A stretch of 60,309 nt of DNA. It comes from Aplysia californica (Eukaryota). Where the stretch lies: the NCBI RefSeq assembly GCF_000002075.1, contig NW_004797307.1, forward strand, positions 2,047,934-2,108,242. Direction: 5' to 3'. Of this stretch, positions 15,558-52,289 are shown in pieces; the stretch's first letter is position 1; the number at the start of each line of letters is the position of its first letter. Made by a program: the position numbers and the translations under genes. The notes beneath the pieces were generated by a model, which was not told the origin of the DNA, did not search any database, and worked only from the letters and a program-made list of their open reading frames with translations.

Positions 15558-18500
15558 CTAAAGCAACACACACAACAGAACAACGTCAGTTTCTCTCACA
15601 AATATCTACATGGGCACATTTTGTATTTAGTTTATAGCGTTTTATAGCACTTGCAACACAATAAAGTCATATAAGTGCCGAAGATTAGTGAGTGTTACAA
15701 GAGAAACAAACACGAAAAAGGAGGACGAGAGTTCAGGACGATAGATGCTTGATAGGAAAGTAGAAGCAAACTACTGCATAGCACCCGCCAACCACCTATC
15801 GGAACATCTCTCTTACAATTCACCAGCCGAACAAATCAATTCTTTTTTCCTCAAACAACTCTTCTTTCTAAATAAAGTGTTTTACGGCGCTCGCAATTGC
15901 ATAAGGTATTATGAGCGCTCGGGTCCCATTAAACTTTTTCAGTTGATAGGAAATTTTGAACTTTGCTCGGGTGGTGGTCGAAGCCTACTCTTATTGATTT
16001 TATTTTAGACCACCAAGGGATCTTTAACGTGCGCAATTTGCACACAGGCCTTCCAAGATTTTTTCACCCTTGTCCGTGAAGGCAAGGACTAGATCTTTCC
16101 TATCAAAGGAACAGGGGTGTGGCTGAAAGACAGCTGTAAGAATGAGTCAAGGAGAAGCAGTAGGAAGGCTGCAGAAAGAGTCAGGAGCCCAGAGGAAGGG
16201 GCAAAGGAGGTGAGGGGGTGGGGCAGAAAGAGGAGACGAAAGCAGACGAAAGAACATAGCTAGAGAGCTGGGAAGGAGGTGAAGAAAGGAGACAATTTTA
16301 GGGAAGAACATTTTTCTGTCGCTACACGGATTCAAACCCGAGACTTTTGAATGAGAGGCCAATACCTTAATCTCTAGGCCACTAGAGCCCTCTACGGGAA
16401 GTATAAAAACGTAAAGCAAAAGATCTAAGTGTTTACTTAAAAACAAAAATCATAAAAAATGGTCTTCTTTTATGCAACAACAGTCACTAAATAATAATAT
16501 AATACTGTACATCTAAAAATCCTAATCTGCATGATAAAGTACCTATGATGCTGTTATTCATATGGTAAACTACAGTACTGTAGAGCTGGCAGTGGGAAGG
16601 GTTGTCAAGAACACAAAGTACAAGGCAAAACTGGGATGGAGGGGAAGGAACCAAATGGCTGGTGGCCTCACACAGATACAACTTGACACATGGGAGAAAT
16701 GGGAGAGGGTGGTGCGGTTGTGGGCGGGTGTGTACATGTACATCTTTCCAAATACAACAAGCAATCAACAAGACAAAGACACCAATCAATAGGGTTGGTC
16801 TCTTTTCTTTCTTTTAGCGAGCTATCTTTTAGAAAAAATTCTTAGTCTTTCATTTTGTACTTGCTATCAATGTGTCTCATTGACATTTCTAAGAGCACAA
16901 TAATAATAATAATTATTATTGACATACACCTAGTAAAAAATAGAATAGGGCCTCTGTCAAAAGGACATGAATAATTTTATTTAATTAAATCTGCTCTACA
17001 TGGTAAGTTATTTTAAAAAATGGAATTGTTCATATTTATTAAGGGATGGTGACTATGTACATGACCTATTCAACTACCATTTCTAAATACATGCCAGTTA
17101 TGATCACTTCATGCCAGAATAGAGTCTCATCCTAATTAAAAACCAAAAAAAAACCCAAACCCAGCTACTTAAAAATCGAAGTGCAATTCTTAACTAGGAT
17201 AAAATAGAAAGATCAACTTTCAGTCAAGTCAGTGATTCGGATCAATAAACATTCCAAGCACTCAACAATAAAGACAGAGAACATCTTTACAAGGAAGTCA
17301 TAACCATGTACTGTTCAATATACATCCACACACTACTCAAGAGACAACACAAATATACCTACAGGATAATATACGTGCAAAATCTACACAATACAATAGT
17401 CAATCCACACAATAAGTGAGGTGTAATATAATCACACACCCCAACCCCCCCTTTGAAACCTTTTTAATTTCCTAAATCGCACTAAATTCTACCAGCAAAA
17501 AACTATTCAGAGATGGATCAAAAATAAATGTGTGTGACTTTAGGAGTGCCCTCAGAGGCTCATACACACACACATGTACACTGACAGCGACACACACACA
17601 CACACAAACACATGTACACTCACAGCGACACACACACATACACACACTCACAGCAACACAAACACTCACTCACAATAAAACCCACACACAGACACCCACA
17701 CTGGGGTGAAAACTTACCCGTGGCATTTGCCGCCTGTTGCATGGGGGGGCGGGGTCCTCCTGCCGCCATGTTGGGGGCTCCCTGCGGGGGTGCAGCCCCT
17801 GGGGCTCCCTGTTGGTGCGGCGGGTACTGGCCGGGGTAGGGCTGGGGCGCCATGGGGGGCTGGCCAGGATAGTGGGGCGCCCCCTGGGGCCCTCCGCTGT
17901 AGGGCGGGTACCCTTGCTGAGGCTGCTGTCCCATGCCGGGGTACTGGCCCTGGGCGGCCCCCGAGTGGGGCGGGTACTGGCCTGGCTGGTTCATGTAGCC
18001 AGGGTAGTGGCCGCCGGGCTGCTGGGGTCCCGCTCCGGGGTACTGCTGGGGTGGGGGGCCCCCTTGTCCCATGGGCCCCATGGGGTGGTGGGGGTATGGG
18101 CCTGACTGGTAGGGAGNNNNNNNNNNNNNNNNNNNNNNNNNNNNNNNNNNNNNNNNNNNNNNNNNNNNNNNNNNNNNNNNNNNNNNNNNNNNNNNNNNNN
18201 NNNNNNNNNNNNNNNNNNNNNNNNNNNNNNNNNNNNNNNNNNNNNNNNNNNNNNNNNNNNNNNNNNNNNNNNNNNNNNNNNNNNNNNNNNNNNNNNNNNN
18301 NNNNNNNNNNNNNNNNNNNNNNNNNNNNNNNNNNNNNNNNNNNNNNNNNNNNNNNNNNNNNNNNNNNNNNNNNNNNNNNNNNNNNNNNNNNNNNNNNNNN
18401 NNNNNNNNNNNNNNNNNNNNNNNNNNNNNNNNNNNNNNNNNNNNNNNNNNNNNNNNNNNNNNNNNNNNNNNNNNNNNNNNNNNNNNNNNNNNNNNNNNNN

Positions 18501-24500: not shown

Positions 24501-27500
24501 NNNNNNNNNNNNNNNNNNNNNNNNNNNNNNNNNNNNNNNNNNNNNNNNNNNNNNNNNNNNNNNNNNNNNNNNNNNNNNNNNNNNNNNNNNNNNNNNNNNN
24601 NNNNNNNNNNNNNNNNNNNNNNNNNNNNNNNNNNNNNNNNNNNNNNNNNNNNNNNNNNNNNNNNNNNNNNNNNNNNNNNNNNNNNNNNNNNNNNNNNNNN
24701 NNNNNNNNNNNNNNNNNNNNNNNNNNNNNNNNNNNNNNNNNNNNNNNNNNNNNNNNNNNNNNNNNNNNNNNNNNNNNNNNNNNNNNNNNNNNNNNNNNNN
24801 NNNNNNNNNNNNNNNNNNNNNNNNNNNNNNNNNNNNNNNNNNNNNNNNNNNNNNNNNNNNNNNNNNNNNNNNNNNNNNNNNNNNNNNNNNNNNNNNNNNN
24901 NNNNNNNNNNNNNNNNNNNNNNNNNNNNNNNNNNNNNNNNNNNNNNNNNNNNNNNNNNNNNNNNNNNNNNNNNNNNNNNCGCACAGTACAGAATCTTCCA
25001 ACCACGGCGGTGAATTTATGCTTGGTGTATAAATAAAGATGCACTAATAGTTTAACAATGCAAATATGTCAGTCCATTCTTTACCAAAAAAATATGGGAG
25101 ATGTACACCCACACTACGAAGCACATTTTGTTTCATGCAATTCATCATCTGATGTCCCTCTAGCTGTGTAATTAAAAAAATATTCAGCTTTATAAAAAGA
25201 AAGAAAGAAAAAAAGACAGACAGACAGAAAGAAAGACGGACAGAAAGTAAGAAAAAAAAAAGAAAGGGGGAAAGAGGAAGGAAAGAGAGCAAAAAATTAA
25301 TATTCACTTCCAACCCTCCCACACACCACACACACCTGCACACACATACATACACACACACACGCGCGCGCGCGCGCATAAACGCACCTACACAAACACA
25401 CAAACTGACCTGTGCCGGCAATACCACTCTTCTCGAGCCCGTATGTGGGCTCCACGGACTGGCCGTCCTTGCTGGCGTTGAGGACAGTCTTTGTGTGAGC
25501 ATCCACGATAGAGGGGGGGACCTCGTCCTTCATCTTGGAGAACTCCTCTGCAGGGACAACAGGGAAACACAGGTAACTTTTTCCAACAAACAGGGAAACA
25601 GAGGTCACTTTTTTCCAACAAACAGGGAAACAGAGGTCACTTTTTTCCAACAAACAGGGAAACATTTTTTTAAAATTTATAGTAGAGGGTTTTACAGCGC
25701 TCGCAACTGCATAAAGTCATATGAGCGCCAAAGAAGTCTTGACAGGGAATCAGACTTATTCTGCTCACCTCTCTAGCTTCAACAGCACAAGGTCTGCTTC
25801 GACTATCAAGGCACCCCGGGAATAGCAGGTCACAAGAGAGTGACAAACATACAAAAGAAGTAGAGGAAAATGACAATAGTAAGGATTAAGAAAGAAAAAG
25901 CAGCAGTTCCCTGTTGTAGATCAGGCACAGTTATGAGCGTGACATGAATCAGCCCATTTACAATTCTACTGAGCTTGAACCAGAAATGTCCCCCCTTTGG
26001 GAATGGCCTAAAGAAACTTCAGTCAGTGGCACCACCCCGGGGGGGGGGGGGGGGGGGGGAGACAGGGAAACAGAGGTAACTTTTTCCAACAAACAGGGAA
26101 AAACTGATTACATTTTGAAAAAGAAACATAGTATATTTTCTAATAAACAGGGAAACTGAAAATTCATTTTAGAAAAAAACACGGAAACTGATTTCATTTT
26201 GCCATAAACATGGAAACAGATTACATAGCATAACAAACCATTCTTGGGTAAGTGAAAGGTGGAAACATAAATCATAATTTTTTAAAAACAAATGAACATG
26301 ATACAAATATTTCCCAATTTAGTAACTTTACAATATCATCAATGACTAAAATTATTTTCAGTGACCACTACAATAACTCATTATCAATATCAAATATCTA
26401 TTGACACTGAATTTGTTTCAAAAGAGTAAGACTCCAAGCACACCAGGCATCAATATTCTAACAAGCACTCTAACTTACTCAACCAGTCATGCCAACTTTC
26501 TAAAACTTCAATCACAGAAACCTATAATTATAACATCAGATTACATACCAACAAACAATATTACATCAAGACGGACCGGTTTTGGTTTAGTATATTATTA
26601 TAATATAATGTCCTCCCATCAAATTCACAGTGGCCAAATTCGTGACAGTCCCGGAAGATCCTGGACAGTTCGCTACCCTAAAATTACAAAGTTCTATCTA
26701 CCAGTACCTCGTTTTGAATATCTTGGTAACGACTCAAAGTAATCTTACGATTTTGAAAGAGCAGCTAGAACATTTGTGAGGCAGCGTGGTGGAATCAGGC
26801 TCTCGTCAATTTTTGGGCATGTAGAGTTATTGGTATTATCTTAAAGCTTGTTCACTTGTTTTTATTTGTATGAAAAAAATATCCAATTTATCTTGAATAC
26901 AAGTCGAGATATTTGCTAAAGAAGGAGGTGGGGGTCACCTGTTTTCAGAGGTAAAATTAGTGAGAAAATGGCTGCCAAAGATTAGTTATTTCCTTCGCTT
27001 AAGAGTCCGTGGTGACTGAAAATTTACATTTTTGTGCCTTTAATCAAGAAATGAGTTCTTTAATGTGCATGAAAAGTGTTGAGCCAAAAAACAAAAATTT
27101 GATAAAAATTCACAAACCTGCGGAAAAATGCAAGTTTCTTCACTTTGATTATTTTGACGAGAGCCTGATTCCACCACGCTGCCTCACATTTGGTTTCTGA
27201 CCTCATAGCCTTACTAAGTCAAAACAGCCAAAAATATCAAGATAGAACTTCGCATTCTACGGTAGCGAGTTGGCACGCCTGCAGAACACCAGGACACTCA
27301 CCCATGGCAGCTTTAGCGGCCGCACTGGCCACCCGGGGGTCAACGATGGAGGCCAGGAACGCCACGGTGGACATGATGGGGTTGCCCGTCTTGGAGAAGG
27401 GCACTGGCTGGTACACCAGGGGACCTGGACACACACACATAAAACAAACAAAAAAACATTAGTTTTAGTTAGAGATTTACACGACACTTGCAACACAATA

Positions 27501-30500
27501 AGGTCATATAGTGCCGAAGATTAGTTTAGTTTTAGTAAGAGTTGTTTTTGGGCACTCGCAACCCAATAAGGTCATTTTAGTTCCGAAGATTAGAGGTGTT
27601 ACAAGACAGTAACAAACACAAAAAAGGAGGGGAGATGAAGACGATAGATGTTTGATAATGATAAGAAAGAAGGAGCAAACCATACCAGAGCACCCGCCAA
27701 CCTTCCATCACAAAAGAGTGTCAGCATGATCAAGACATGAAAAGGAATTTAAACAAAGAGAAGTTGATTACACAACAGCAGCTTTTTCGTGCAGGGAGAA
27801 ACACCATTTTTTGGGTTTCATTTAGTTGGAAGGAGCTGCTGGTCTTATTTTTCTTTCCCTCTGTTGTATTTGTCTGACTGTCTTGTGCTTTGTAAGAACT
27901 GAATGACTGTTATCTTGTTGATGTGCTGCTTCTCTTTACTCAAAATAAATGATCAGAAAAAGAAAACAGAAACACTACAGCACCCTCCAACCATCCAGAC
28001 ATGATAGTTTTCTCATTATCATTCCAGGAAAAAATGACAAACATAAGAGTTATTAGAAAAAGAATGCAACAAAAGAATTTATACACGTACACATATGGAA
28101 ATAAAACTGAAATAATAAATGTACAATTCAGCATTATCACAAGGACCAACAAATCTCACCCAATATAGCTTTAGTAGAGGTTTTACAACGCTCGCAACTG
28201 CATAAGGTCATATGAGCACCAGAAGATTAGAGGTGTAACAAGAGAGTAACCAACATAAAAAAGAAGAAGGGGAGACAAGGAGAATAGATGTTTGACAGGA
28301 AAGAAGAAGCAAACCACACCAGAGCATCCGCCAACCACCCACAAATCTCACCCAGATGTCCGTCGTCCTCCTCCATGAACGGGTCCTCGATGGGCAGGCG
28401 CAGGAAGTGCAGGATACACTCGTCCTGCGTGCGGCTGCCCACGTGCTCGCACACCTTGTTCCAGTCATCCTTGTAGAGCTCCAGGGCCTCCAGCAGCAGC
28501 AGAGTCTCCTGGTCCGACCACTCGCGGCTACGCATGGACGGGTTCTTGTCCTGCACACACATCACACACAGTTTTGTTTTAGTAGAGGTTTTACGGCGCT
28601 CGCAACTGCATAAGGCACACAGTTTGAGTAAGAAATGTTTGTTAGAGTAAAGAGAAGCTCATAGACACGGTAATGGTTTATTTGTCTGTTTGAATAAAAA
28701 GAAGCACATATTTAGTTTTAGTAAGAGTTTTAAAGCACTTGCAACACAATAAGGTCATATAAGTGCTGAAGATTAGAGCTGTTAGAAGGGAGTAACAAAC
28801 ACAAAAAAGAAGGAGGAGAGATAAAGATGATAGATGTTTGATAGGAAAGAAGGAGCAAACCACACCAGAGCACCCGTCAACCACCCACAGAAGCACATGA
28901 ACACAATGGCGGTTTGCTTGTTATGAGGAAACAGAAGCCCATCAACATAATAATTTGTTTTGTTTGAGTATGGAAGAAATTTTTTTTAGAAAAGCACTTC
29001 CACATGCCCCAACCACTCGCCATTTTGCAAGGAAAAGATTACCATATATACCCATGTACGAGACAGATTTTTACAAAATTTTTCTGTGTCTCTTTTTTCT
29101 AATCCCAAGCTAACTAGATCTCGATCGGCCTGTTTAAGACATGCGCCATGTAAAATAAGATTAACCAGTTATCTTAATTCCCCCACTAACAAGGTTTTAC
29201 AACATGCTCCAACTAAACTAAGATTCTAGTTTCATCTGAAGTCAACCCCTGTCTTGTGCATGTGAAATCAAATTCAGCATCACTTTCAGAGGGCAAAGTG
29301 TACTCTCATCTTATCTTAGAGTGTATATAGTACATACACAACACTATAGACACATGAAAAGTAAAAGAAGCAGACCACATCAACCAACAAATTGCAGCTG
29401 CAACTTTTCACCTCTCTGCACTACTGTCAACCCCGGCTGAGCAAATAACTGTCAAGACTTTATCCTGCAAACATAACAAGCCTCCCTCTCCCTTCTAGAC
29501 CTTAACGTCCACAACTTTTCGTATCATCTCTTGCCTTCATAGCTTTGCGTGTGTACATGTCCGTTTTAAGGCCAACGCTTCCGAGCTCTTTCTTGTCCTC
29601 GCCTTCCTTTTCCTTATCCTTCTTGTCGCTGAAGTCACAGATTTCTTGGGCAGCAGATGGCTGAAAGGAGAGACAAAGTTGTACATATGTGTCAAGGTAC
29701 AGTGGAATCAGGCTCTCGTCCGTTATTGGGCATAAGAAGTTCTATTTCTCCTTCATTAGAGAGCAAGATGTTTGATACCACTTTTGTCAGTCAAATTTGT
29801 CACACTGTTAATGGACACAGTAAGACATGTCATGGAGATGATGTGTTTCTTACATGCAATCATCAGAGGTGTAGACATAGAAGATAACAGTAGCCCAGTG
29901 GTTAGTGAGTCCTGGCTCACAATAATGTCAAGTGTCATTGACACAGCATTTAGGTTAGTCTTCACTAGGATGTGTCTTTGTTCTAGTTTTAGTAGAGGTC
30001 TTATGGCGCTCGCAACTGTATAAGGTCATATGAATGGCTGAAGATTAGAGGTGTTATAAGAGAGTAACAAACATAAAAAAGAAGAAGGGGAGATAAGGAC
30101 GATAGATGTTTTATAGGAAAGAAGGAGCAAACCACAACAGAGCACCCGCCAACCACCCATGATGTGTCTTTGAGCAAGACACAATCACCATAGTTCAAAA
30201 ACAGGGCACCGCACAGTCACGACCAGAAATAGCAAGATTACTGTGAGTAATAAAATGATATAAAACTACTATATTTCCACATTATAACTATTTAATCATT
30301 TTTACACTTAAGCTATAAACTATTTTCTTAATAAGCAGTGAACTGTATGGAAGCAACACTGATGTGTTATTGATTTAAGTGTGATATGAACTATGTTTTA
30401 ACCAAATCTCCCCACAGGGATCAGTTAAAGTGGAATTTATTTATTCATTTATTTATTCATTTATTTTACTTTATGACTCTGAACAAAGCACGTACCTGGT

Positions 30501-33500
30501 TGACCCGTGGTGGGTTGATGGATGTGATGCCGGATGGGGTGTCGGCCAGAATGTGGAAGTGTGAGGTGGACGGGGGTCCCATGGGAGTTGGGTGACTGTC
30601 CGCATCCACCTGGTAGTTGATCAGACCCCACTGCTCCAGGAACGCGTGCACTCTGACCGGGGGCAAGAATAAACCAAATGATAGAGAACGCTGCCTCGTT
30701 GATTTTTTACCTCATCAAAATCTAGACATAACATTGTTTTGTTTTAGTAACAGTTTTACAGCCCTTTTAACAAAAGTCATAAAAGTGCTGATAATTAGAG
30801 GTGATCCTACAGAGTTACATATAAAGAAAGGAAGGAATGAAAAGGACAATAGACATTTCATTGAAAAAAAGGAGAAAACCACACCAGAACAATCTCCAAC
30901 CACCCACACCTAATCAATTATCTTGAAGCAAAAAGCTCTGATCATGAATTTGGAGGGGAGGTGTTGAAATACAAAGTTCCTCGTATGAAGATGGTTTACA
31001 TTTCAACCACAACCCAGAATCAGGAAAGGGGACCACTCCTCCCCGCAGCCAGCAGATCATTTGCACTTAAGATCTTAATAGACATGCCTACCCATGAATA
31101 TGACTTAGACGATCATCAAGTGCAAAAATGAGGAACATGGGATGAAAATTAAGTGCAAAATAGCAAATGATGACTGGACTTGCATCATCTGACACTTTTT
31201 TTTTTTTTTCAAATTTCCAAACTCCAACAAAACAAAACTTCGCAAGCTTTTAAACAGCACTTCAAACTCACAACTATCAAGTGGACTCCCTCATAGGCAC
31301 AACAATGGCACAAAATAGAAGAAAAAAAAAAATAGGAAGAGTCTTCCCACTCTTCTTCACTACTAACAATAACACAGGGATGCCACTCAACTTTTTTGAA
31401 AATAGCTGAAAATCCACGGGCCAAGGTCTAGCTAACATATGAATATCAATTTGAAACTCAAAGGGTGTACATAGAGAGAAATGACAAACAAACAAAAACA
31501 ATGGGTGTACATAGAAAGAAATGACAAACATTTTTTTTTAAAAATAGATTAGATGTACTTAACATGACATAATCTTACCTCTCACTTTCATATTTTACGA
31601 AAGTTTGTGTGAGGGATTTTTTTATTTTTTTTAAAACTTTCTCTATCTCAATAACGGAATAGCGGACCAGAATCAAAATACCGCAAATACCTAAAAAAGA
31701 AAAAAAAGCCGAAAAGTGGCATCCCTGAAACATAACAGCAAGTAGGTCAAAGCATGCGGCACCGACACAAAGTCCTGGACGCCACAACCAAATCTCACCT
31801 CATGATACAGCACACATCACCAGCAAGGTTCCTCCTCACTGCGGTGGACGTCAGGTACTCAGTGGGGTTCAGTCGGTATGTGTCGATCATGAAGTTACGG
31901 TACGCTACGTATCTGGTGAGAGGGGGGGAATAAAAACATTTTTTTAAATGCTTGACTGACACTGTAAATATAAAAAGATGAGAAGTATTCAGGAAAATTG
32001 CTCTTAAAAACTTAGCAAATTTATATCTACTAAAGTCACGAAACTTCAAAGGCCACAAACTACTTCAGACTTCTGACTGGGAAGAGTAGAAAGAAGAGAG
32101 AGACTATTTATAGTTGATCGGGAAGATAGGAAAAAAAGGATAGAACATGGGATTTTCTCGTAAAACTCATGAAACACAGAAAACAGCGAGCCAGTCTGTT
32201 TTAAGTATAATTCCACCCAGAAGAGAATGAGGGGGGCAGCCTCAGCCAAACTTTAAAGCATAGAGCAAAGCACAGCAAAAGAAGAAGCAAGCATAGCATA
32301 AGACAAAGCTATCAACAGCAAAAGAAGAAGCAAGCATAGCATAAGACAAAGCTATCCACAGCAAAAGAAGAAGCAAACCACAGCAATCTAATAGAGCAAA
32401 GCACAGCAAAAGAAGAAGCAAGCACAGCATAAGACAAAGCTATCCACAGCAAAAGAAGAAGCAAACTATAGCAATCTAATGGAGCAAAGTACAGAAAAAA
32501 AGAAGAAAAAAAAAGCACAGAAAACGAAGAAGCACAGTAGAGCAAAAGAAGGAGGAAANNNNNNNNNNNNNNNNNNNNNNNNNNNNNNNNNNNNNNNNNN
32601 NNNNNNNNNNNNNNNNNNNNNNNNNNNNNNNNNNNNNNNNNNNNNNNNNNNNNNNNNNNNNNNNNNNNNNNNNNNNNNNNNNNNNNNNNNNNNNNNNNNN
32701 NNNNNNNNNNNNNNNNNNNNNNNNNNNNNNNNNNNNNNNNNNNNNNNNNNNNNNNNNNNNNNNNNNNNNNNNNNNNNNNNNNNNNNNNNNNNNNNNNNNN
32801 NNNNNNNNNNNNNNNNNNNNNNNNNNNNNNNNNNNNNNNNNNNNNNNNNNNNNNNNNNNNNNNNNNNNNNNNNNNNNNNNNNNNNNNNNNNNNNNNNNNN
32901 NNNNNNNNNNNNNNNNNNNNNNNNNNNNNNNNNNNNNNNNNNNNNNNNNNNNNNNNNNNNNNNNNNNNNNNNNNNNNNNNNNNNNNNNNNNNNNNNNNNN
33001 NNNNNNNNNNNNNNNNNNNNNNNNNNNNNNNNNNNNNNNNNNNNNNNNNNNNNNNNNNNNNNNNNNNNNNNNNNNNNNNNNNNNNNNNNNNNNNNNNNNN
33101 NNNNNNNNNNNNNNNNNNNNNNNNNNNNNNNNNNNNNNNNNNNNNNNNNNNNNNNNNNNNNNNNNNNNNNNNNNNNNNNNNNNNNNNNNNNNNNNNNNNN
33201 NNNNNNNNNNNNNNNNNNNNNNNNNNNNNNNNNNNNNNNNNNNNNNNNNNNNNNNNNNNCCCCTCCCCCCACACACACACACAACACCTACCACCTTAAT
33301 GTGCCACATTGTATGTATACTCACCCGTTCACCCTGTTCCTCGTCTAAATCCATGATGGTTCCTCCTTTGATCGGTGTAAACTCGTCTTTGCCACTGCGC
33401 GAGGAAGTGCCTGAAGATTGTCATATATAGAATATTCTGATTTTGTTCTTGGAGGAGCCTCTGTCAGTCTCGAAACTTTTTCTCCGTGTAAAGAATTTTA

Positions 33501-36500
33501 CCCACCCTTCTCAAGATACATTATGCCCTTCTCTGTAGTAAAGTTCACCATCTCTGAAGCTTTGAATGCTCATAATCGTATCTGATATTTTGATGCCACT
33601 CAGTTATTTTGAGTAAAGAAAAGATTTTTAAAATTGACAGCAAATGTGGTTGACTTTTTTCAACCCATAAAGACAAATAACTTCCCAAGTTACTTCACTC
33701 AGCAGACAGTGCTAGAACTATCGGTAATAAGTAGTTGGAAACATTCAAGGCAACCTTTCTGATGTACATGTTGGGTTTTTTGTGGTTGTTATTTTTTGTG
33801 TGTTTTACGGCACTTGCAACTGCATAAGGTCATATGAGCGCGGGGGACACACGAAACATTTTTAATTGGTAGGATATTTGTATTTTGATAAGGTGGCGGC
33901 CGAAGCCTACTCTGATCAATTTTGGACTAACAAGGGATCTTTAACGTGCACAACTTGCACTCGGGACCTCCGAGATTTTTCGCCCTCGTCCGAGAAGGCT
34001 AGGTGTAAATCTTTCCTACCAGAAGATCAGGGGTGTGGCTGTGTGGCTGAAAGACAGCAGTAAGAAGGAGCCAAGGAGTAGCAGTAGAAAGGCTGCAGAA
34101 AGAGTCAGGAGCCCAGTGAAGGGGGCAAAGGAGGTGAGGGGACAGGGGAAGAAAGTGGAGACGAAAGCAGATGACAGAATATTGCAAGAGAGAAGGAAAG
34201 AAGGTGAAAGGAGACAATTTTAGAGAAGAAAATTTCTCTGTCACTGCCCAGATTCGAACCTGAGACCTTTGAATGAGAGGCGAACACCTTAACCCCTGGG
34301 CCATCAGAGTCCCCAATGTAAATGTTGGTTTGGGATAACAATCCTAATGCTTCGATGCCTCCACATGGCTACAGCATCCCCCCCCCCCCCCCACACACAC
34401 ACACACACATATGACACATAGAACTATAGCAAACAAGTAGTTGAACACATTCCAAGCTACCTCTCAGACGTACACAAATTTGGGAGAACATATCACAATG
34501 TCTCCACTATAACATAATAAAAATATCATATAGATCTAGTAATGGAAAGTTGTGCTGAGCACAAACCGAGCCCGACAAAACTATGTCAGGATAGGATGTA
34601 CAAGTGCGCATACGAAGACGCGCGCGCACACACACACACATAAATCGCAACACTTCCAGAGGAGTAATCACCTGTCTTGGGGTTGTGGACCTCCTGGATG
34701 TTTGTCTCGGGCACGGGGTCCTCCATGTCTTTGGTGCTGTCCTCCTCTTCCTCCTCCCATTTGCGCTTCTTGCTGGCCCCTATTGCCGCTGCCCGCGAGC
34801 TGACAGAAAAAAAACAACGAAGCAAGCGTACAGTCAGTTTAAGCTTTAATAAGTGTTTTTTGTCACTTGCGACACAATTACAGAAACATATATAGGTGCT
34901 GAAGAATAGAGGTACTCCAGGAGAGTGACATACAAAAAAAAGGGAGAACTAATTGTTTCATTGGGAGGACTTCCGTAACGAGCAATCACTATGAGACAGA
35001 GTAGAACAGAGGGCTAGGGGTAGTTCTCTTCTTCTTTACTGTGTTTGTTGGGTTGGTCGCTCGTTACGGAAGTCCTTCCGTTTCATTATTTCAATAACAA
35101 TTTATTTGAACCCAGCGATGCTATGAAAACCCCCCCCAAAAAATGAAACTACAGGAGTCTCAGCACTCAATGATATCTAAATTATTTTAGGATCTCATCG
35201 GCTGAGAAAATCATGGTATAGTGAAAACAATATCACGATCAACAATAAAATGGGCCACTTAACCTTTTAAATGACATACAATATGTAGTAATTTGCAACT
35301 ACATAACCTCATATAAATTTTTAAAAACAAATTAAGCATATATCCCCCCTCCCCCCACCATCAACCTACCCCCTGGCAAGCACCTCCAAATGCATAGGGC
35401 TCAGCATTATGAGGGTTTCAGCCCACTTTTTTCTCACAGATCAGCCAATTTCCATCACCATTGCAGCTCACAAAATTTTATCAGCACTAGCTAATACTCC
35501 AAGAAATAAGTAGGCACAGAAAGATATAATCAGAAGAACATCCACTTGAATCAACAACCACTGAAAAGTTACATTAAAAAACAAAAACGCTTCCAAAGTA
35601 AAAACAACAAAAGTGGACATGAAAATGCCACTGGCAAAAACCCAAACTGAAACAAATCCAACTTGAAACAGAAACATAAACAAGAGTTGGGGTTCTTTTT
35701 GTCCCTCTCTTTTGTTCTGCAGTATCAAGTTCCCCAAGTTTGCATGAGGGAGAACAAGCCCAAAGTGAACTGTGTTTACCTTTTCAACTGCAATCTCAGT
35801 GAACTGAAAGTAAGAAAAATTATCAAATTGTGTCTGCTCATTCCTTGTAATGTGAACAGGGTCTGTCTGCCTTCTGGATCCCCCACCTCCCCCCTTCAAG
35901 GTAACTGAACTTGTTTTCTTCCATTTAAAAAAAATTGTGTATTTCAATAAAGTGAGATAATTTTTGCAGAAGTGTACAGTACGGGGGATTACAAAAGAGA
36001 ATTACAAAAGAGAAAAACAAAAGAGATAGGAGAAAGTTGCTTGTATTGGGTAGTGATATTCTGATAATTCCCTCACATAAAGGAATGAAGTCATCAGTGT
36101 CGTGCCAAAAAGACCGGCCACGAGGATAAGTCGTATCAAAGGGGTGGGGTGAAAAAAATAATAAAAAGTTCAAGTCAAAAAGAGACTTCAAGAAAAGCTT
36201 TTCATTAGTCACAGAACTGACTGAAGACAAAAGGAAACTGTAATCAAAATTGCACTCTTTCACAAAAGCAAGCCATTTGTGTCATGGAGATTAACACCAT
36301 TTGTGTCATGGAGATTAACACAATTTGTGTCATGGAGATTAACACAATTTGTGTCATGGAGATTAACACCATTTGTGCTATGGAGATTAAAACCATTTGT
36401 GTCATGGAGATTAACACCATTTGTGCCATGGAGTTTTAACACTTCACTCTCTATCAGACGTCTCTTTCTTCCCGCGACGCCCAAAAGGGTATAAGCGGCG

Positions 36501-39500
36501 GATAAAAGTAAAAGAAAGTAAGCTCTCTACCAGAGACCAGAGCAGCAAGTGTGNNNNNNNNNNNNNNNNNNNNNNNNNNNNNNNNNNNNNNNNNNNNNNN
36601 NNNNNNNNNNNNNNNNNNNNNNNNNNNNNNNNNNNNNNNNNNNNNNNNNNNNNNNNNNNNNNNNNNNNNNNNNNNNNNNNNNNNNNNNNNNNNNNNNNNN
36701 NNNNNNNNNNNNNNNNNNNNNNNNNNNNNNNNNNNNNNNNNNNNNNNNNNNNNNNNNNNNNNNNNNNNNNNNNNNNNNNNNNNNNNNNNNNNNNNNNNNN
36801 NNCCCCAACTTCTAAATACAGTCAAACTTTTGTTGATTTTAATTAGTAAAATAAAGGGGGAATCCATCTCCTTTCGTTAAATCCCAGTTTCACTGTACAG
36901 GCTGACCCTGTACTAGCCACTGCTTTTACCTTTTTCTCTTGATCTTTTCAGCGGGAGGGGACGGTGACCTCTTCCGTTTTGTGTTGCCCTTCTTCTGTCG
37001 TCTGCTTTTGTCTGCGTCTGGACTGTCTCGCACCTGAGTAGTTTGAAACAACACAAAAGAATTAGTAATATGTACTCATGTGGGTACATTTTATAACACT
37101 TGTTAGCTCCACTTATCATTCTGTCTCGTACGAGTTAAATACAAAATATTGCTGTGCCTACCTCTATGATTTAAGATATAATATGCTTTAATTCTACTAG
37201 TTTGAGAAAAATGACACCTAAATTCATTATATAAATCTGTAAAAAATCACATGCCATTTGAATCCCTCTGCCCTGATTTTAATAGCTGTGAAAAGCCCAA
37301 ATATCATAAATGCTGAAGAAGAAAAATTAATGGGAACAGCGCTGGTCCATAAAGTAAAAAAAAAACCAACAACCATTAAAACTTTGTAGGTCGGTGTAGG
37401 AAAATACTCACATCATCCACAGTGAGACGAACCTTCCCAAACTTCTTTGTCTTTTTCCCTTCAGCCTGGAGGATGGAAAGAAAACATCAGAACTGAAAAC
37501 CATTTCTCAAATACATTACAACCCTCCCCCTCATGGTTTCTTGTAATCATTGAACATTGTAATGTCTAAGTGGTGGGCAGTAAACGTTCTGGTGTCAAAA
37601 TAGAAAGATATAAGTAAGAAGATATAACTGTAAATGTGGGTTGTAAAGCCATTCGACTCTACAAATCCCATTGAAAACCAGCAGTTCCCATCAGTTCTTA
37701 GAGCTGAATGCTACAATACAGTTTGCAATTGTTTTTTCTTAAACAAAGTAAGAGAAACACATCAACCCAATAATGGTCACTGATTTAGTATTGGGAAAAA
37801 GTAAGACAGACAGAGAGTAACAACAGAGGGAAAGTAAAGAAGTAGGATCTACCAGTGGCACCCTCTATCCACCTGATTAGCCTACTTCAAAAAAATATAT
37901 TTTCCATCATGAGGAGATCACCTGAACAGACAAGTATGAAGAATCCTCAGCACAAAAACATTGTGCATACAGGGGGAACAGACATTGGATTACAAAAACA
38001 CAAGACACTTTGAAACTGAAAATTTTGGGGTGTAAAAAGAAGAGTGAAACTGATGTGGTGATTAAATAATTAGACACTATAAATCATTTTTTTAAAACCC
38101 CATGAAATCCAAAGAAACAGCATGTAAAAGAAAATGCCACCCAAAAACCAGTTTCAAATTTGAGTAAAGGCAAGCACATGTGCACAATAATGGTCATTTA
38201 GAGCAGGGGTGGGGGGGNNNNNNNNNNNNNNNNNNNNNNNNNNNNNNNNNNNNNNNNNNNNNNNNNNNNNNNNNNNNNNNNNNNNNNNNNNNNNNNNNNN
38301 NNNNNNNNNNNNNNNNNGGGGAGCAAGACAAACAGAAACAACAGGAAAAGGGAAAAAAAGGTAGAACCCTCAGTACAACATCCCCACCCCCCACACCACA
38401 TAAATCAAGGACCAAAAAAAACAACCTGGAATTGACTGAAGCTTTAATTTGTGAGGAAAGAACTTACAGAAGAATAAAATACATTATACATTGACCAAAA
38501 CAGAAAAAAAAACTCTCATCAATTTCAGAAACAAAAATTCTATCTCTTTAAAAATGTCAGAAAAAGCAGGAAACTTGAATTAGGTCAACTTACATTAAAC
38601 TCGTCCTCCACGAGATAATCTTCCTCATTCATCCATTCGTTGAACTCCTCCAGGTCCAGAAGCCACCGCGCACTGACCTGTCAAAAAGATACAAAGATCC
38701 TTTCTTTTTAAAACTTTTTAGAAATACCCAAGCTCAGCTTTCTCTCTAGTAAAAGAATAAATTGCCATCATTAGTATCAGTGGCTCAATCAACAAATTCA
38801 TCATAACAAATCGTTCCGAATACTTTTAAATCTCATCTCTCATCATCGTTTAAATGAGAAGGCACTCTATTGCCGTTCAAGTTTACAACTTCTGTTTTTG
38901 GGCCTAGGTTGGAATGATAAGCTCACTGGCATAATGATGGCTATAAACTTATAAAGACATGGAACAAATAAAACAAGACTATTATATAGCATGGGATGGT
39001 ACTCCATTACTACCTGTTGATATCAGCAAATTTAGAAACACATTAACAGTCAAACCTTCTTTAACAACCACCTGTCCTAAACAACCATCTGTCCTAAACA
39101 ATCACCTGCACAAATGACCACTTCCCAATTTGAGTTTTTTTGTCGTTTTAAAATAACACTAAACTTTTTTGTTTTAGTAAGGTTTTACGGCATTCGCAAC
39201 TGCATTCGGTCATATGAGCGCCAAGGGGTGGATGTGAACAGAGAAGTCCAAACGGGGAATCAGGCTTACTCTGCTCACCTCTCTAGTCCCAACAGCACAA
39301 GGTCTGCTTTGACTATCAAGGCACCCCGGAAATAGCAGTTCACAAGAGAGTGACAAACATACAAAAGAAGAATAGGAAAAATTACGATAGTAAGGATGAG
39401 GGGAAAAAAAAGCAGCAGTTCCCCTGATGTTGCTCCGGCACAGCATGAGCATGACATTGATAAATCAGCCCATTTACAATTCTGCTGTGCCTAAAAACAT

Positions 39501-42500
39501 AACATGTTAATATCCTCCCCTTTGGGAATGGCCTAAGGACAATTCAGGCAGCATCAGTTTGGAGAGGAAACTTTCTTCGTGTTCAGTTTTATGACTAGTT
39601 TTCTGCCGTGGATTTTAACGATAAGCTCGCTGACATTGATAATTAACTATAAAGACGAGGAACAAACAAAACAGACTTACACAGTATCAATGGTACTCCA
39701 TGACCATCAGTTGAAATGAACAAATTAGAAAACTTTTCTATAACCTTGCATTGCCGAAGTAACCCATCACGATCATATCATGCCATTTTTACATTTTTCA
39801 TTGTATTTTTTATCCAAAGGTTAACTTGTTTCATTGTAAAACAGTGATAAACATAAAGTCTTTGAAAGCAAATAAATCAACAAAGACGCAATGAAAACTG
39901 ACAGTGAAGGTAAAAATAGTTACACCTTTAAAATATAACCAAACCCCCCCCCCCCCCCCCCCCCATGTTCTTTTAATCACAAAGCAAATACATGTACTAT
40001 CTTCTACAATTCATGAATAAAAAGTAGGAAACAAGTCCCTCTCAAGTAATCAATCAACACATGAGAAATGCTGTTCAGTTACTACCGTGGGCATCACATA
40101 AGACACTAGATATCATCAGTTCACATCGGTCCAGCACCACACAATCCGTCCCCGACTAGCAAGCCTATGTCCACTATGCGAGCAGCTCATTAGAGTCGAC
40201 TTACCTCCCATACTGCAGGCTTCTCGTTCTGGTCGAAGTCATACTCTATGTTCACATCAGTCACCCAGGAATCATAGCTGCAAATAAACAAATTATGAAC
40301 TTGTACACACAAGGGAGTGAATTTGGTTTTCGTTTTTAAGCTGACAGGCATTACATGCACTGAATCATGAACTTGATTGAAGTCTTAGTGGTACAGCATT
40401 ATCAATATCAGTTCAATAAGGAAATCCAATAAGGGCTACATAAAAAGCACACAGGGCACAAGAGCCATCCTCTTATCGGTGTGTAAAAAAAAATAATAAG
40501 ACATCAGAATGGACAGAGAAATGAAAACATATCAACCTGTCAATGAAAGGAGTCAAAAGTTTCACTAACTTTCGATGTTGACAAACAAAGCAATTAAGAC
40601 CCTGTTAACAAATCAGAAAAATAAAAGCCTAACAGCATATCTTACCTGTCTGGAAAGTACCACCAGTGAATGTTGTATCCTTTGTCTCTCTTCATGGTTG
40701 GTCTGAAAAATTCCTCCGCTGAAAAAAAAATAATGTAAAATATTTGTCAACCAACAGCCATACAATACCAAAACAAAACAAAAAACAAAAAACACTCAAT
40801 AATGCAAGCCTGCAAGTCATAACCAACTTGCACAGGAACATGTGGATCAGCACTCCTTTCCTATGATGAAAATTCAATTTTAAAAAGTGTATTGTAAAAT
40901 AAACGTTTTATTTGAGGGCGGTGCCTAAGTAAACTCACCGATCATAGCTGCCACTCAGAAATTTTTAAAAAGGAGGAAATTCACGCGAAAGCGTACGCGC
41001 GCTCTCCGAAACCAGTGAGATCCAGAGGCAATATATACTGAAAAATCTAGCCTACGGTTTTGGAAGGGAAGACTGTCATATTGTTAACCATAGGCAACTG
41101 AATTAAAATGTATTTGAAAAAAACAACAACAAAAAACAACAACATTAAAGGCAGTAAGTTGACAAACAAGCATTCGAGTCAATTTGACACAGTTTGGACT
41201 TGGTGACTAAAAATCTAGTGTTTTTTGCCAGCTGGTGTCTCATAAAAAGATTTCTTTCACTTTAAACGTGTACATACATAGACGTAGAGCAGTATCGGAT
41301 CAAGGATACACAGGCACTCCTGTACAATGGCGGTCCAGTTTGCACTTAGTGCCCCTGACCTGTAGTGTGTTTCTTATTTAGAGATAAATTGAATTAAAAT
41401 TATAGCCTAGGCTATCTAATCTAGATCTAGATATATCTAAATATGTGTAGATCTAAATTATATCTAGAGATAGATTTTCTAGATCTAAATCTAGATCTAG
41501 ATTCACTTCCGCAGCAGCCACAATAGCCGTCATGTAAACAAACGGGACCGCAATTGTACAGGACTGTAACAGGAGTGCCGCGGGCCGCGATTTCTTTCGC
41601 AAAAAACAGCTAGATCTAGTTCAATTTTCTAATGAACTTTTCAAGTCGCACACCGGCTGCTTCTTTCTCATTCCAGCTCCTTTTATTTTTGCATTCTGAA
41701 TCAATTTCTCTCGAATTTCCGCCAATTTCAATGACAACTCGGCGCGCTAACGTCCCGATGCCCGATCGACACTGTGTTGCTCCACAACAATGAACAATGT
41801 GAAACTAGCGCTGGGCCTAGAAGAACGGAAGTAGAAAGCTACGGGCGGACATGCGCAGACCGCGTTTTCGTCTCTCTCCCGGTTCGGTGTTTTCCGCGTG
41901 GAAAAAAAAGTATGAAATTTGCGACCAAGAGCGGTCCAGCGGAGGAAGGAGGAAAGTTGCGGGGAAAGCTAGATGTAGCGGAGTTTCCGCTATTTAGCGG
42001 GAAAGTGGCAGCTATGACCGATATAATAGCCACACTCAAATGGGAAATCACTGTATCTTAACACATTACACCCTAAGGGCCTGGACGGGAAGTCCATTGT
42101 TAGATCCTAAGCAAGGGGAAAGAACCCACCTCCCGTGAATACTAGCCTTTAAAAAACACATTTTAAAAATACTAAACAAATTCCAAAAATCCTGAAAAAA
42201 TAAAAGTTAAAAAGAAAACTGAATGTAGTTTCAGAAAAATATAACTTTATGTATGCGCAAACTGTTGGAAATGTTCTAACTTTAGTTCAATCGGGGTGTC
42301 CGACCCGTCACTCTCACTCTCAGCCTCGCGGTCGGGCCCTAGATCTAAATTCTATAATTTCTCCGTCTGATCAATCGGAATCGCCCCAAACTCTTCCTAC
42401 AACGTTTTCATCAAAATCTGAGCCATCTGATTTGTCACATGCTCGTTTTTGCTCAAATCCATCGTTATTTCTGTTTTCGAACTCAATTGTGTCGCTTTTC

Positions 42501-45500
42501 AACAAGTCGAGGCACTTTCGAAGTGTCGGTAACGCGATCGCACTTCAATCAGCTCTAATACTAACACTACTGGCCCGAAAAATTTCGTTTTGGTATCAAA
42601 CGAAAGAAGAAACTTTTTGCTATACTATGCAAATCAAAATCCCGGCCCCAGAGACTTTCATTTCTAAAGACGCTGGGTCGGCGCGGGCAGTTCCGGGCGA
42701 GTCAGGGTGGAGCGCGTAAGGGAATTCACGGGCGATCCCGGGCGAGTTAGGGTGTAATGTGTTAAACATCTATCTGAGCATCCACTAAAATACCACATCT
42801 CATATACGCTTTTATTTCTTTATGCCAAGATTTTATAACACCAATAACAGTTCTTTCATTAAATTCAACTTTATTTTTTTCCCCACATCATTTAAGAAAT
42901 TTATTAAGACCAAACAGTGCACTGATTGCAAAACTACCAGCAAAAGGGTGAATCGTGAGTAAAACATTTAAAAGATTAATTGAATGCTCGGTTTAAATGT
43001 CAAATAAATTTGTTGTACTGTGAAATCTGTCACAATCCTACATCCACTTTTCCATCCATCAGGACAAATGTCAGCACAAGCTAAAACACACATCAGCCTC
43101 AGACCTGAAGTAGTGTTATGGGTGAAATGAAATAGAAATACTGTTAGGGAGCATGCCTTTTAATCAATTTATCAAAGGCTAGACCAGGCAGTCATTTGCC
43201 AAAAAAATTTTACAGGCAACAACAATTACAAGCAATAGGCTACAACCAATCAAGCTTGCTTCTACGGTTAGCGTCACTGGAAGCGGCATTTATAACTGTA
43301 CCACTAACCACAACGGATGTTTCTATCAACAACCAAAAAAAAAAGTACGGAACAGACAACGTCGAGGCAGGCTTAAGAAAAAAGTGGGCACTAACATTCA
43401 CCTTCCTGCGCAGGGGGGTTCTGAGGCATGGTGTGCACGATGTGACTGGCTGACTCGACCGTGTCCACCACAGTCCCCTGGTGTCGCTTGACAATGTCGC
43501 GAAGCTTGGGCACCAGAGCCTTGTCAACCTCTGGCTTTATAAAAATTTGGGGCAGGACAAAACAGCGGGAGCCAACCAATGCTTTCTCCACCTGCAGGAA
43601 CATCTCTACATTGCGGTCCATGCGGGATGGGGAGGCAAAATCGAACCGGCGCCTGTTTACAACAGCAATGGGAAAGAAATGGGGAAATGGGGGGGGAGTG
43701 CATTAAAATACAATACTGAAGTGCTCATATTTCCAGTTGACAGACTTTTATCATCCAACATTTGAATGGTGTAGCAGTAACAACATACTTTTCTTGGTTC
43801 AGAACAGTAAAATCTACATACACAGAGTTGTCTTTTAGAAGACAGGAAAAGTCAATATTAAACCATGCCNNNNNNNNNNNNNNNNNNNNNNNNNNNNNNN
43901 NNNNNNNNNNNNNNNNNNNNNNNNNNNNNNNNNNNNNNNNNNNNNNNNNNNNNNNNNNNNNNNNNNNNNCCAATGGACTTCTCGGAGGCTGAGACATTTA
44001 CATTTACATTTACAGAAAAAACGGAAAATGACTTTTAAATATAACCTGGAACAGATCCCCATATGTGTTTCAAAAGAAACCCTTGTTCCATGTTTCAAGC
44101 TCTGCTTCTACAGCGAGACTCTATTCTTTCATAACAGATCAATTCTAGAAAAAAAAATTGCGATTAAATTACCAAAATCAAAAGTGAGTCATAAGAGTAA
44201 TTGTACTTCAGAACATCTGTTGACTTTTTTTGTTGTTTACCATACTCCATGAATATCAAAATGAAAACAAAAGTCTTCAATAAAACTAACCATCCTTGTT
44301 CACTTTTGAATTTGAATACAGCTTGAAAGATCTGACAGAGGCTTGAACCTGGCTTGAAGTCCAAAAAGCATTTCATCTGAGGACAAAGAAAAAGATGATG
44401 TTTGTATTGAGCACGAAGAATGTAATAGGAATATGTTATGTTATCTTTATTCAAAAGGTGTCGGTAGTCTAGTGGTTACGCTACTGGACCCGTACTCGTG
44501 AGGTTGCCAGTCCAGGGTTTCGAGCCGCAGGCCCGGCATGTCCTTGGGAAAGGCACTTAAAACGAATTTTCCTCACTTCCCACAGGAGGGAATGGGTACC
44601 AAGCCATAGACAGCGAAAGACCTTGTCAGCATGTTTATGTTTTAGAGCGTATAAAAGGCAGCTTGCACTGTATGCTTCCCAGGAAGTTGAGATTGTTTCA
44701 GAATGTTATCTATCTGTTAGGGTAGTAATCAGATTGTAAAGCGTATAGAGCTTGCTGTTAAGCAGGAATTTGCGCTATACAAAAGCTATCGACAATTATT
44801 GAATTCCTCAACACCACTACCTCCACACCTCAATTAGGAAGGTTTCACATTAATTTCATAAGTGGATGAGAGCACTAATAATATCACATGAAACAGGATT
44901 TTTGAGAATGTTGACCACTTACCGGCAATTTGGTGAGAGCTGGATTAGAAAAATTTCTTCCAAATGCTTCTTCTTGAAACTGCAACAGCTGAACTAACAG
45001 ACTTGCCAAGCTCTTGTTTGTTGGGGGATCTGCGTGTACATACTGAGAAGGAGAAATACAAAAAAGAGTTTTAAGGAAACATTGAACAGAAAAAACAAAA
45101 CAAAAATCAGCACATTTCCAGAGAAAAAGGACAAAAAGAGATACACTTTTATATGTTCTGATACCCGAGTGGGAATTTGTGCCTGCCAATATTATTATTA
45201 TTTCACAGCTAATACCTTCATTTCAATCCATTGCACACTGCCACATCAACTAGCATGTTACCATATAAACCAGAAAATTGGTAAATAAGTGAAAAGTCAT
45301 GCATAATACTCTGTTTTACAGACACGCATATCCATTAATTTTTAAGGTGTGATATTATTATTAATGTAATGCACACTGAGCATTTTTAAGAAACGAAATG
45401 ACCATTCGGAGTCCAAATAGACAAAAATTATATTCGGACTCTGAATTGAGTCTTTATATCTCCTATCTTCCTTGCCCACGAGATTAAACCAAACTTGCTA

Positions 45501-50678: not shown

Positions 50679-52289
50679 GTCGTATTAATCAAGGAACAAC
50701 ACCCAAATCGTGTCCTCTTTTTTGCCATCACGGTGTTCACAAAGCACGTTATAAAATTTAGACTGAAACCTTCTTTCAAGATTAACTAGTAAATCTAATA
50801 ATGAAACAAATAATAATATTTCGTCAATCAAAAACTGATTTTGACCTTGCACTTCCAAGGAGGGAGAGAAGTTATAGCCCTTGTGTTCGTGTGTAGCTGA
50901 TAAAGAGAGTAAAGTAACAGAATCTATATGAAGGAACCCGATCACAATTCACAATGGCACAGTTTGTAGCACATAGCAACACTTTTCTTTTACCTAAGGC
51001 GGTGTCCGCATCTGCATATTATAGAGTATCAGTGTTACAATAGTTTGGGTGTTTTTTTTTTACTTTTTCAAAAAAAGCTCTGCTTGTCTCTTTCAACAAA
51101 AGAGGAACAAGAAAAGTAAAACAGAAAGAGAAGGAAAGTGCACTGACAGCTGTTTAACTGGTTTAAAATTGTTTTGCTATAGTGTCGAGCTTGAATTGCG
51201 TAGAGTGTGATGCTTTGGGATTTCTCCTTTTCCATTATTCTAAGCAACTTATCAGTCCTTCGTTTACCTCCCACCTATGTTGTTTAACTGTCAACACTTT
51301 CATAAAAATCATATTATTGCTTCTCCCTATACAAGAGTATGCAAATCGTAGGTCCCTAAAGATGCATAAATAATAGTATTTGTTTTATGTAAGCAGAATT
51401 CATGCTCCGTGTTAAATGTCCTTCAGAAATGCTGTTTAAAAGTTTGGCATTTAAAAAAGAAAATGATGTTTGAACTACGTAAAGATGCCTTATCGGTTGT
51501 CGCAAAGGACATTCCAGTGGTTCCCGCGTGAACTTTGTTAGTTTTGAAGCACTGATCTCGAATATGACATTTTGTTCCCCCTCAGAATTTATTTTTTAAT
51601 TTAATTTAATTTATTTTTTTATTTTTTGTATTTAGCTGTCCTTGAGCTAGGCCTATGGCTGATGAGTGACCACTCGACCCGACTCAAATGCCGTATTTCA
51701 AACGACCCGTCTGGCTTGGTGGACACACTCAAATGGAATTCCCACTGAAACTAGTCTTCCAATTCAACAGGCGTACGCGTTTTCATCCCTATCTTCCTCT
51801 CACATTTCGTTTTCGTCCCTCTTTCTTCAGACGTGATTTTGTCCTTTTTTGCCTCACTTTTGCAATAACACACACACACACNNNNNNNNNNNNNNNNNNN
51901 NNNNNNNNNNNNNNNNNNNNNNNNNNNNNNNNNNNNNNNNNNNNNNNNNNNNNNNNNNNNNNNNNNNNNNNNNNNNNNNNNNNNNNNNNNNNNNNNNNNN
52001 NNNNNNNNNNNNNNNNNNNNNNNNNNNNNNNNNNNNNNNNNNNNNNNNNNNNNNNNNNNNNNNNNNNNNNNNNNNNNNNNNNNNNNNNNNNNNNNNNNNN
52101 NNNNNNNNNNNNNNNNNNNNNNNNNNNNNNNNNNNNNNNNNNNNNNNNNNNNNNNNNNNNNNNNNNNNNNNNNNNNNNNNNNNNNNNNNNNNNNNNNNNN
52201 NNNNNNNNNNNNNNNNNNNNNNNNNNNNNNNNNNNNNNNNNNNNNNNNNNNNNNNNNNNNNNNNNNNTACTTAAATGTAGAAGTGGGGT

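Follow-up and report, generated by a model that had tools for sequence, protein, structure and literature searches.

Why should every retroposon tail in a gene point the same way, and why should so many of them stop just short of an exon? The SMARCC gene of Aplysia californica raises both questions. It lies in a stretch of 60,309 nucleotides (the window) from this 927-Mb genome (RefSeq assembly GCF_000002075.1, contig NW_004797307.1, positions 2,047,934 to 2,108,242), and coordinates are window positions unless a locus number precedes them. An original prediction, made from the letters of the window, had held that all 13 tail-bearing insertions in SMARCC are sense-oriented, and had offered targeting to the neighborhood of splice sites, donation of a branch point, or selection against antisense copies (whose reversed tail carries TTTTAG) as explanations. 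We find that these are LINE-type insertions (LINE, long interspersed element) and that, in a sample of other genes, two of the three short interspersed element (SINE) families involved, A and C, have a sense excess of about 6:1 and an approximately fourfold enrichment on the acceptor side of introns. Their sister family B, which carries the same LINE tail, is unbiased and serves as a built-in control. Insertion steered by transcription or by exon chromatin is, in our judgment, the probable cause of both the sense bias and the crowding at acceptors, although we hold this with considerable reserve.

The SMARCC gene and its insertions

SMARCC, a BAF155/170-type gene on the minus strand, was recognized from Pfam matches to SWIRM, Myb/SANT, and SWIRM-assoc_2 and from a PDB match to the SMARCC2 chain 6lth_N (E 2.9e-29). 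Its acceptors were placed by reading frame and homology. Upstream, SMARCC continues beyond the stretch of 15620 to 39550 covered by the original prediction, to a first coding exon.

13490..48881, minus strand: SMARCC host gene, 3' end approximate (from Pfam, PDB, exon predictions, ATG exon, and exon reads)
48768-48881, minus strand: first coding exon of SMARCC (ATG exon)
Beginning at 15557, minus strand: last coding exon of SMARCC (exon prediction)

RNA reads over 27250-29720 cover two SMARCC exons on the minus strand only, at a depth of 0-4. No SMARCC splice junction occurs among the RNA-read rows listed for this stretch, where coverage is too shallow and repeats swamp the joints, and contigs from other runs show no empty insertion site. 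At 28572 and 28180, hundreds of reads from poly(A) libraries pass from the tail into A-runs; they may come from a polyadenylated element, from the ends of 3' untranslated regions, or from genomic A-tails of family B.

A profile of the shared tail, about 60 nt long and built from 19 copies in the window, had 22 matches in the whole window. Thirteen strong tails (32-62 bits) lie in 15621-39226, within about 13 nt of where they were first reported, and all are on the minus strand, as is one more weak match (22181-22204, 7 bits). Because SMARCC is itself on the minus strand, all 13 are sense, an outcome with a two-sided chance of 2.4e-4 by simple arithmetic. From the tail nearest the last exon upward, the distances to the next acceptor are 63, 311, 127, 32, 97, 737, 18, 158, 319, 82, 384, 37, and 486 nt. 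The pattern of six tails at about 20-130 nt from acceptors, as first described, is present with a different count: seven of the 13 tails end 18-127 nt ahead of acceptors, six of which are involved. Both motifs quoted at 27425 and 28551 are in the sequence. The tails had been treated as one group, but the 13 copies belong to three families.

15621..15797, minus strand: SINE family A, sense, its tail ending 63 nt short of the acceptor of the last exon (15557)
15869..16392, minus strand: SINE family B, sense, with a tRNA-like head and a Snail/Nin-like core motif, 311 nt from the acceptor
25675..26040, minus strand: SINE family C, sense, tail 127 nt before the acceptor at 25547
27457..27524, minus strand: 5'-truncated tail copy, sense, 32 nt before the acceptor at 27424
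27522..27703, minus strand: SINE family A, sense, directly upstream of the preceding truncated copy and 97 nt from the acceptor
28162..28342, minus strand: SINE family A (subfamily A1), sense, its 5' end abutting the donor of exon 28352-28550
28569..28615, minus strand: 5'-truncated tail copy flanked by a 10-nt target duplication, 18-25 nt ahead of the acceptor at 28550
28709..28888, minus strand: SINE family A (A2), sense, 158 nt from the acceptor
29980..30160, minus strand: SINE family A (A1), sense, 319 nt from the acceptor
30735..30907, minus strand: SINE family A, diverged, sense, 82 nt before the acceptor at 30652
33796..34312, minus strand: SINE family B, sense, about 384 nt from the acceptor
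34837..34943, minus strand: SINE family A, partial and diverged, sense, 37 nt before the acceptor at 34799
39164..39551, minus strand: SINE family C, sense, 486 nt from the acceptor

The profile search found no tail in 39300-60309 (21 kb, including the first SMARCC introns), compared with 13 in the preceding 24 kb.

Three SINE bodies and a LINE with one tail

The three SINE bodies have a 55-nt hairpin tail in common. Family A is about 175 nt long and pyrimidine-rich, with a fixed 5' end in 136 of 157 copies; family C, of about 385 nt, has a 75-nt block in common with A. Family B is about 530 nt long and by eye has a tRNA-like head, a look that A and C do not have; ARAGORN found no tRNA in the consensus sequences of A, B, or C. 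Families A and C terminate in TACTAAAAC repeats, and B mostly in TTACC or TTTAC followed by A-runs, 31 of its 38 ends having no CT[AG]A.

The same tail terminates 5.5-kb LINE copies, which also end in ACT-containing repeats.

L194:3237-8769, plus strand: full-length 5.5-kb LINE with target duplications and broken frames (a copy in L199 likewise)

In the L194 copy, PF14529 and PF00078 scored above their cut-offs and PF00075 just missed its own (25.6 against 25.8), and CCHC knuckles were read by eye. This layout of endonuclease, reverse transcriptase, and RNase H fits the I superfamily; we use the label Nimb on the strength of the domain layout and of published work. In molluscs, several unrelated SINE bodies carrying one LINE-derived 3' tail are described as mobilized by Nimb LINEs of the I superfamily in the parts of the reports available to us (PMC4758252, PMC4824008, PMC11481361), so the shared-tail arrangement as such is already known. 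Family B contains an 18-nt word found in the Snail-domain SINEs of a published supplement, and a search of the published mollusc SINE supplements for the motifs of A and C gave no match (one file of each lay outside the search).

Exact target duplications of at least 8 nt flank 68 of 217 copies of family A and 21 of 59 of family B, with a mode of 10-12 nt and a null of 3% from shuffled pairs; the figure for family C, whose 5' edge is poorly set, is 1 of 46. Duplications of 10-13 nt mark these as target-primed insertions of the LINE type. Two other origins were rejected. A snoRNA-derived retroposon found no support in an Rfam scan of 27200-34400, which returned three chance-level matches, none of them to a snoRNA, and the heads of A and C are not pieces of the LINE 5' end, as none of 16 LINE loci, including two of full length, matched them.

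Orientation in other genes

The sample was made up of multi-exon genes located through the Pfam DEAD, AAA, kinesin, and ion-channel domains (120 ten-kb loci, 97 genes). Six of the 54 DEAD rows, the intronless and some other ion-channel rows, and the mostly intronless Pkinase anchors were left out of the choice of loci. A splice and codon model was trained on 188 anchor exons, with ion-channel anchors kept out of the training, and its acceptor matrix on 188 acceptors of this genome. The model regained 171 of the 188 anchor acceptors and, at the threshold used, called 463 exons on the anchor strand and 23 on the opposite one; its spacing rule bars only gaps of less than 40 nt. Short introns are nearly absent in L001-L120, the 5th percentile being 347 nt and the median 884 nt among 247 phase-compatible predicted introns. 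At a tail cut-off of 20 bits, 58 of 327 matches in the anchored loci were dropped and 269 were kept.

These 269 tails comprise 216 sense and 53 antisense (89:17 between anchor exons). By family, the sense:antisense counts are 138:19 for A, 30:6 for C, 21:17 for B, and 27:11 for unassigned tails, and the contrast of A and C combined against B is significant (Fisher p 2.4e-5). Gene by gene, the non-B tails lean sense in 68 genes and antisense in five, with five ties, compared with 15, 12, and two for family B. LINE fragments in the anchored genes are 9:1 sense. The less diverged half of family A is more sense-biased than the more diverged half (61:2 against 53:10, p 0.03), and the same comparison within A subfamilies gives 17:0 against 13:4 and 44:2 against 40:6. 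The genome-wide test proposed with the original prediction therefore yields an orientation far from 50:50 and, as described below, a non-uniform intronic position.

Sixty random loci were used as a replicate set. In the 16 of these with exon calls, the counts were 14:5 for A, 2:1 for C, 1:4 for B, and 1:2 for unassigned tails. The sense strand of introns is rich in T (skew 0.10), and masked T-over-A skew, used as a proxy for the strand in random loci, was right in 14 of the 16. In the 26 most skewed random loci (skew of at least 0.07), the counts were 32:5 for A, 7:1 for C, 4:5 for B, and 5:4 unassigned, so that A and C together (39:6, with B at 4:5) replicate the orientation independently. 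In the 15 least skewed loci family A stood at 2:7.

Nine other repeat groups, each oriented against its own reference copy, gave 33:34, 33:15, 15:11, 4:7, 3:8, 10:0, 6:3, 5:5, and 6:3, seven of them balanced and two not. One repeat of about 870 bp, which has no Nimb-type tail, lies 11:1 one way relative to its host genes and makes a second oriented family.

L013 7273-8143 (gene-sense coordinates): hub of the oriented repeat of about 870 bp, with copies in L070, L054, L086, L018, L062, L049, L077, L061, and L021

Position relative to splice sites

Sense tails crowd toward the next acceptor: 52 of 216 lie within 150 nt of it against 14.4 expected (20 against 5.6 with anchor exons only), and none of the 53 antisense tails does, against 3.5 expected. 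After excision of the elements, with positions drawn locus by locus, 41 of 181 sense tails fell less than 100 nt from an acceptor against 11.0 expected (permutation p 0.0005). The 40 acceptors with a near tail are distributed over 31 genes, and their exons translate to recognizable motor, helicase, and channel sequence; at 40 of the 463 sampled acceptors the branch region has been rebuilt by an insertion. The peak is broad, with 46 of 195 sense copies at 10-100 nt and 33 of them at 10-60 nt, where 5.7 are expected. Family B has three of 38 tails less than 100 nt from an acceptor against 1.8 expected, the numbers being small, and control repeats show no enrichment at acceptors (14 of 248 copies against 11.2).

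Antisense tails gather on the other side of the exon, with eight of 35 less than 100 nt after a donor against 1.5 expected. Neither sense tails after donors (15 against 10.7) nor antisense tails before acceptors (one against 1.6) are clustered. Since sense tails gather before acceptors and antisense tails after donors, the 3' end of the element tends to face the exon.

Density offers a way to distinguish added sense copies from lost antisense ones. In the gene loci (1098 kb) family A occurs at 0.126/kb sense and 0.017/kb antisense. The baseline of 0.025/kb per strand comes from 19 random loci, exon-free, of low skew, and putatively intergenic (eight copies in 161 kb). The sense density, about five times this baseline, differs from it strongly (p 2.6e-8), and the antisense density does not (p 0.36). 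Family B is equally common in both settings (38 in 1098 kb, six in 161 kb). Among the non-B tails, sense density ranges from 0.229/kb in DEAD helicases to 0.078/kb in ion channels, with antisense density flat at 0.022-0.040. These densities point to sense insertions added in broadly expressed genes, although the baseline is small and the copies are old.

Possible causes of the bias

Under steering by transcription or exon chromatin, the reverse transcriptase complex of the LINE would be delivered to actively transcribed, intron-rich genes, where the first nick would fall on the template strand and the 3' end of the element would tend to face the neighboring exon. The steering would depend on the cargo RNA, because B has the same tail hairpin and yet is unbiased. 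It could be set by the end or the head of that RNA: A, C, and the LINE have ACT-containing repeat ends and no tRNA head, and B has mostly A-runs and a tRNA-like head. The exon nucleosome, the elongating polymerase, and a splicing factor are candidate tethers. Targeting by sequence is improbable, because the target duplications (50 of A and 12 of B) share no conserved motif and only a weak lean toward T then A at their 5' edge, and because an odds ratio of 4.8 persists once flank composition is modeled. Among the explanations originally offered, targeting to the neighborhood of splice sites fits best, though not in a sequence-based form. Single copies that use their tail as a branch point would then do so as a by-product, one that allows insertions close to acceptors to persist. 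Steered insertion of this kind would be a targeting mode for target-primed reverse transcription tied to the direction of RNA polymerase II and to exons.

In a more specific and rather unlikely version, the LINE, A, and C RNAs would imitate a branch site with their UACUAA ends, bind SF1 or the U2 small nuclear ribonucleoprotein, and guide the reverse transcriptase to spliceosomes on nascent transcripts. Insertion would then be co-directional with polymerase and beside 3' splice sites, a new tail could replace a disrupted branch point, and family B would be a natural control with no motif.

Several observations weigh against steered insertion. The bias of family A is weaker (14:5) in the random loci with exon calls, and acceptor proximity was not replicated in random loci (one of 30 against 1.1, where about four would be expected under the effect and power is low). 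About three quarters of the sense copies lie away from acceptors, and only 11 of the 16 long LINE copies occupy the T-rich strand. The unrelated repeat oriented 10:0 indicates that some of the bias may be general. The test for exons being faced was post hoc, and control repeats are themselves enriched twofold after donors (22 against 11.2, n=248), so part of the donor signal is general. The anchor genes represent four Pfam families only, the intergenic baseline is eight copies in loci defined by the absence of predicted exons and low skew, and the A:B ratio differs between genic and intergenic DNA at only p 0.08. Finally, all copies are old (median 6-13% diverged), so insertion and selection are not directly separable.

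The main rival is symmetric insertion followed by purifying selection against antisense copies, whose reversed tail would supply a cryptic TTTTAG acceptor next to a purine-rich body; B would be spared, as its end has no AG. This explains the contrast of A and C with B, the lack of any antisense tail in the last 150 nt before an acceptor, and also the antisense survivors just after donors, where the AG is too close to use, and selection of this kind is known for Alu from the portion of PMC3088655 available to us. We nevertheless consider it unlikely. The AG is kept in 22 of 25 antisense survivors, much as in 141 of 168 sense copies, and a strong acceptor is predicted in 8% of reversed A copies against 22% in the sense direction (138 copies), compared with 62-86% for family B, which thus has the stronger cryptic sites and yet no bias. 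Antisense copies of A are not significantly below the small intergenic baseline (0.017 against 0.025/kb, p 0.36), their loss could not yield a fourfold sense excess at acceptors, and a preference of family A for genes would still be required. Improbable for other reasons is the idea that sense copies were retained near acceptors as the TACTAA tail was put to use as a branch point, the native stretch separating it from the AG perhaps being lost later. The peak at 10-60 nt does overlap a weak peak of native branch words at 20-50 nt, the motif is missing from B, and in 11 of 17 clean cases the interval from tail to AG contains no branch-like word; however, 11.8 of 17 element-free acceptors would be expected to have none either. 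The best local case is the copy at 28569, which splits a branch-like CTCAA word, leaves TACTAA about 30 nt from the AG, and may use its tail as a branch point. Donation of a branch point has no counterpart in the conservation of the tails as a group: none of nine TACTAAAAC columns is better conserved in 22 near than in 126 distant copies, and the T before the branch A is changed in five of the 22 near copies and 14 of the 126 distant ones. Target duplications persist in seven of 18 near and 45 of 86 distant copies, which gives no sign of wholesale deletion, and the bias remains about 4:1 (81:21) more than 500 nt from acceptors.

A passive bias, in which the endonuclease or the annealing of the tail prefers sequence on the sense side (T-rich introns, pyrimidine tracts), or insertion follows replication forks that run with housekeeping genes, seems to us improbable. 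The sense strand of introns is indeed T-rich, the weak T-then-A preference at the 5' edge of the target duplications goes in this direction, GC content is slightly raised in 3' flanks even at a distance from exons (0.414 against 0.387, p 0.07), and L1 is described as following forks with a sequence bias in the part of PMC10030826 we had. Composition nonetheless predicts 62% sense against the 86% seen (n=184), the 50 duplications of family A contain no branch-like target motif, and B is unbiased despite the same tail hairpin. Very improbable is a uniformity made gene by gene, whether by local spread from intron RNA of the same gene or by purging of inverted pairs. Tandem and nested copies do exist (27457/27522 and several others), and inverted pairs are rare in dog according to the section seen of bioRxiv 2020.10.27.358119. 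We rejected local hopping, since derived changes are shared no more within a locus than between loci (115 against 10470 pairs, p 0.72), and inverted-pair purging, which would not choose the sense strand, since 68 genes lean sense and five antisense.

Comparison with known elements

The elements are of a familiar kind; the pattern they form is real, on a genome scale, and runs counter to the mammalian rule, with family B as a negative control from within. In the sections we consulted of PMC3088655 and bioRxiv 2020.10.27.358119, every class of mammalian transposable element is scarce in the 100 nt or so next to exons, above all at acceptors, and the overall lean is antisense. Intronic retroposons of animals are usually depleted near acceptors and antisense-leaning, and A and C do the opposite: they are enriched about fourfold near acceptors, and their sense bias spans whole introns. 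Human Alu is sense-biased near exons through selection on cryptic acceptors (PMC3088655, in part). Alu and the dog SINEC_Cf, as far as these excerpts go, resemble the Aplysia elements in having an orientation bias near splice sites, theirs being tied to cryptic acceptors; here the reversed element is not the stronger acceptor.

The mollusc SINEs mobilized by Nimb share the LINE-derived tail, and bivalve SINEs gather in genic regions in some species. The passages available from that literature read this accumulation as survival bias and contain no sense/antisense or splice-site analysis ("splic" has no match in the text of PMC11481361 consulted). We found no report of sense-biased, acceptor-enriched mollusc SINEs in the literature searched, most subscription journals and Repbase being outside its reach.

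The case also has something in common with tethered insertion. According to the extract seen of PMC3159450, Dictyostelium TRE5-A inserts about 50 bp from tRNA genes, always in one orientation, through a tether between ORF1 and TFIIIB. Both TRE5-A and A/C are of the non-LTR (long terminal repeat) type and are biased in orientation and position with no target sequence. TRE5-A is strict, however, whereas the Aplysia bias is statistical (83-88%), relative to polymerase II exons, and variable among SINE cargoes; orientation is not near-absolute (138:19 for A, 30:6 for C), and the 10-100 nt peak is broad. HIV-1 is directed to highly spliced genes via LEDGF/p75 in the portion read of PMC4647561, which likewise links retroelement insertion to splicing-rich transcription units, though by integrase and not by target priming; no effect on orientation or acceptor distance was seen in that portion. 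The orientation of A and C elements also marks the direction of transcription in unannotated DNA.

Other features of the window

Outside SMARCC, three further minus-strand tails lie at 12825-13195, and 3.1-8.7 kb contains three plus-strand and two minus-strand tails, including the following.

3121..3201, plus strand: 5'-truncated family A copy, about 25 nt before the putative acceptor of the fibrinogen-domain exon 3226-3999
7395..7455, plus strand: tail-only copy, its orientation depending on the host gene model there
8166..8665, plus strand: family B copy, antisense to the putative minus-strand exon 8703-8824, its 3' end facing that exon

The first had been described as repeating the SMARCC arrangement at a fibrinogen-domain acceptor; the tail (3142-3201) and an AG about 25 nt on are present, and the acceptor itself is predicted only. 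The second had been named as the one antisense counterexample; the tail is there, and its antisense status hinges on the local gene model. The tail of the family B copy ends about 37 nt after the donor of the putative exon.

The single-exon fibrinogen domain at 3226-3999 (plus strand) matches Fibrinogen_C (E 3.8e-20). The putative exon at 8703-8824, on the opposite strand to it, has an immunoglobulin-like look and no Pfam match. A SMARCB1/INI1-like first exon at 1440-1577 (plus strand, weak Pfam match) lies close to SMARCC, and both genes would encode SWI/SNF subunits. Upstream of SMARCC, a degraded reverse transcriptase-like stretch was seen by eye at 52270-54130 (minus strand). A long open exon at 57335-58741 (plus strand), with no Pfam match, is head to head with SMARCC with about 8 kb between them; we take it to be KANSL1. 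Positions 834-921 recur at 2592-2679 directly past a gap of 100 Ns (the two together spanning 2492-2679), which suggests a local assembly fault.

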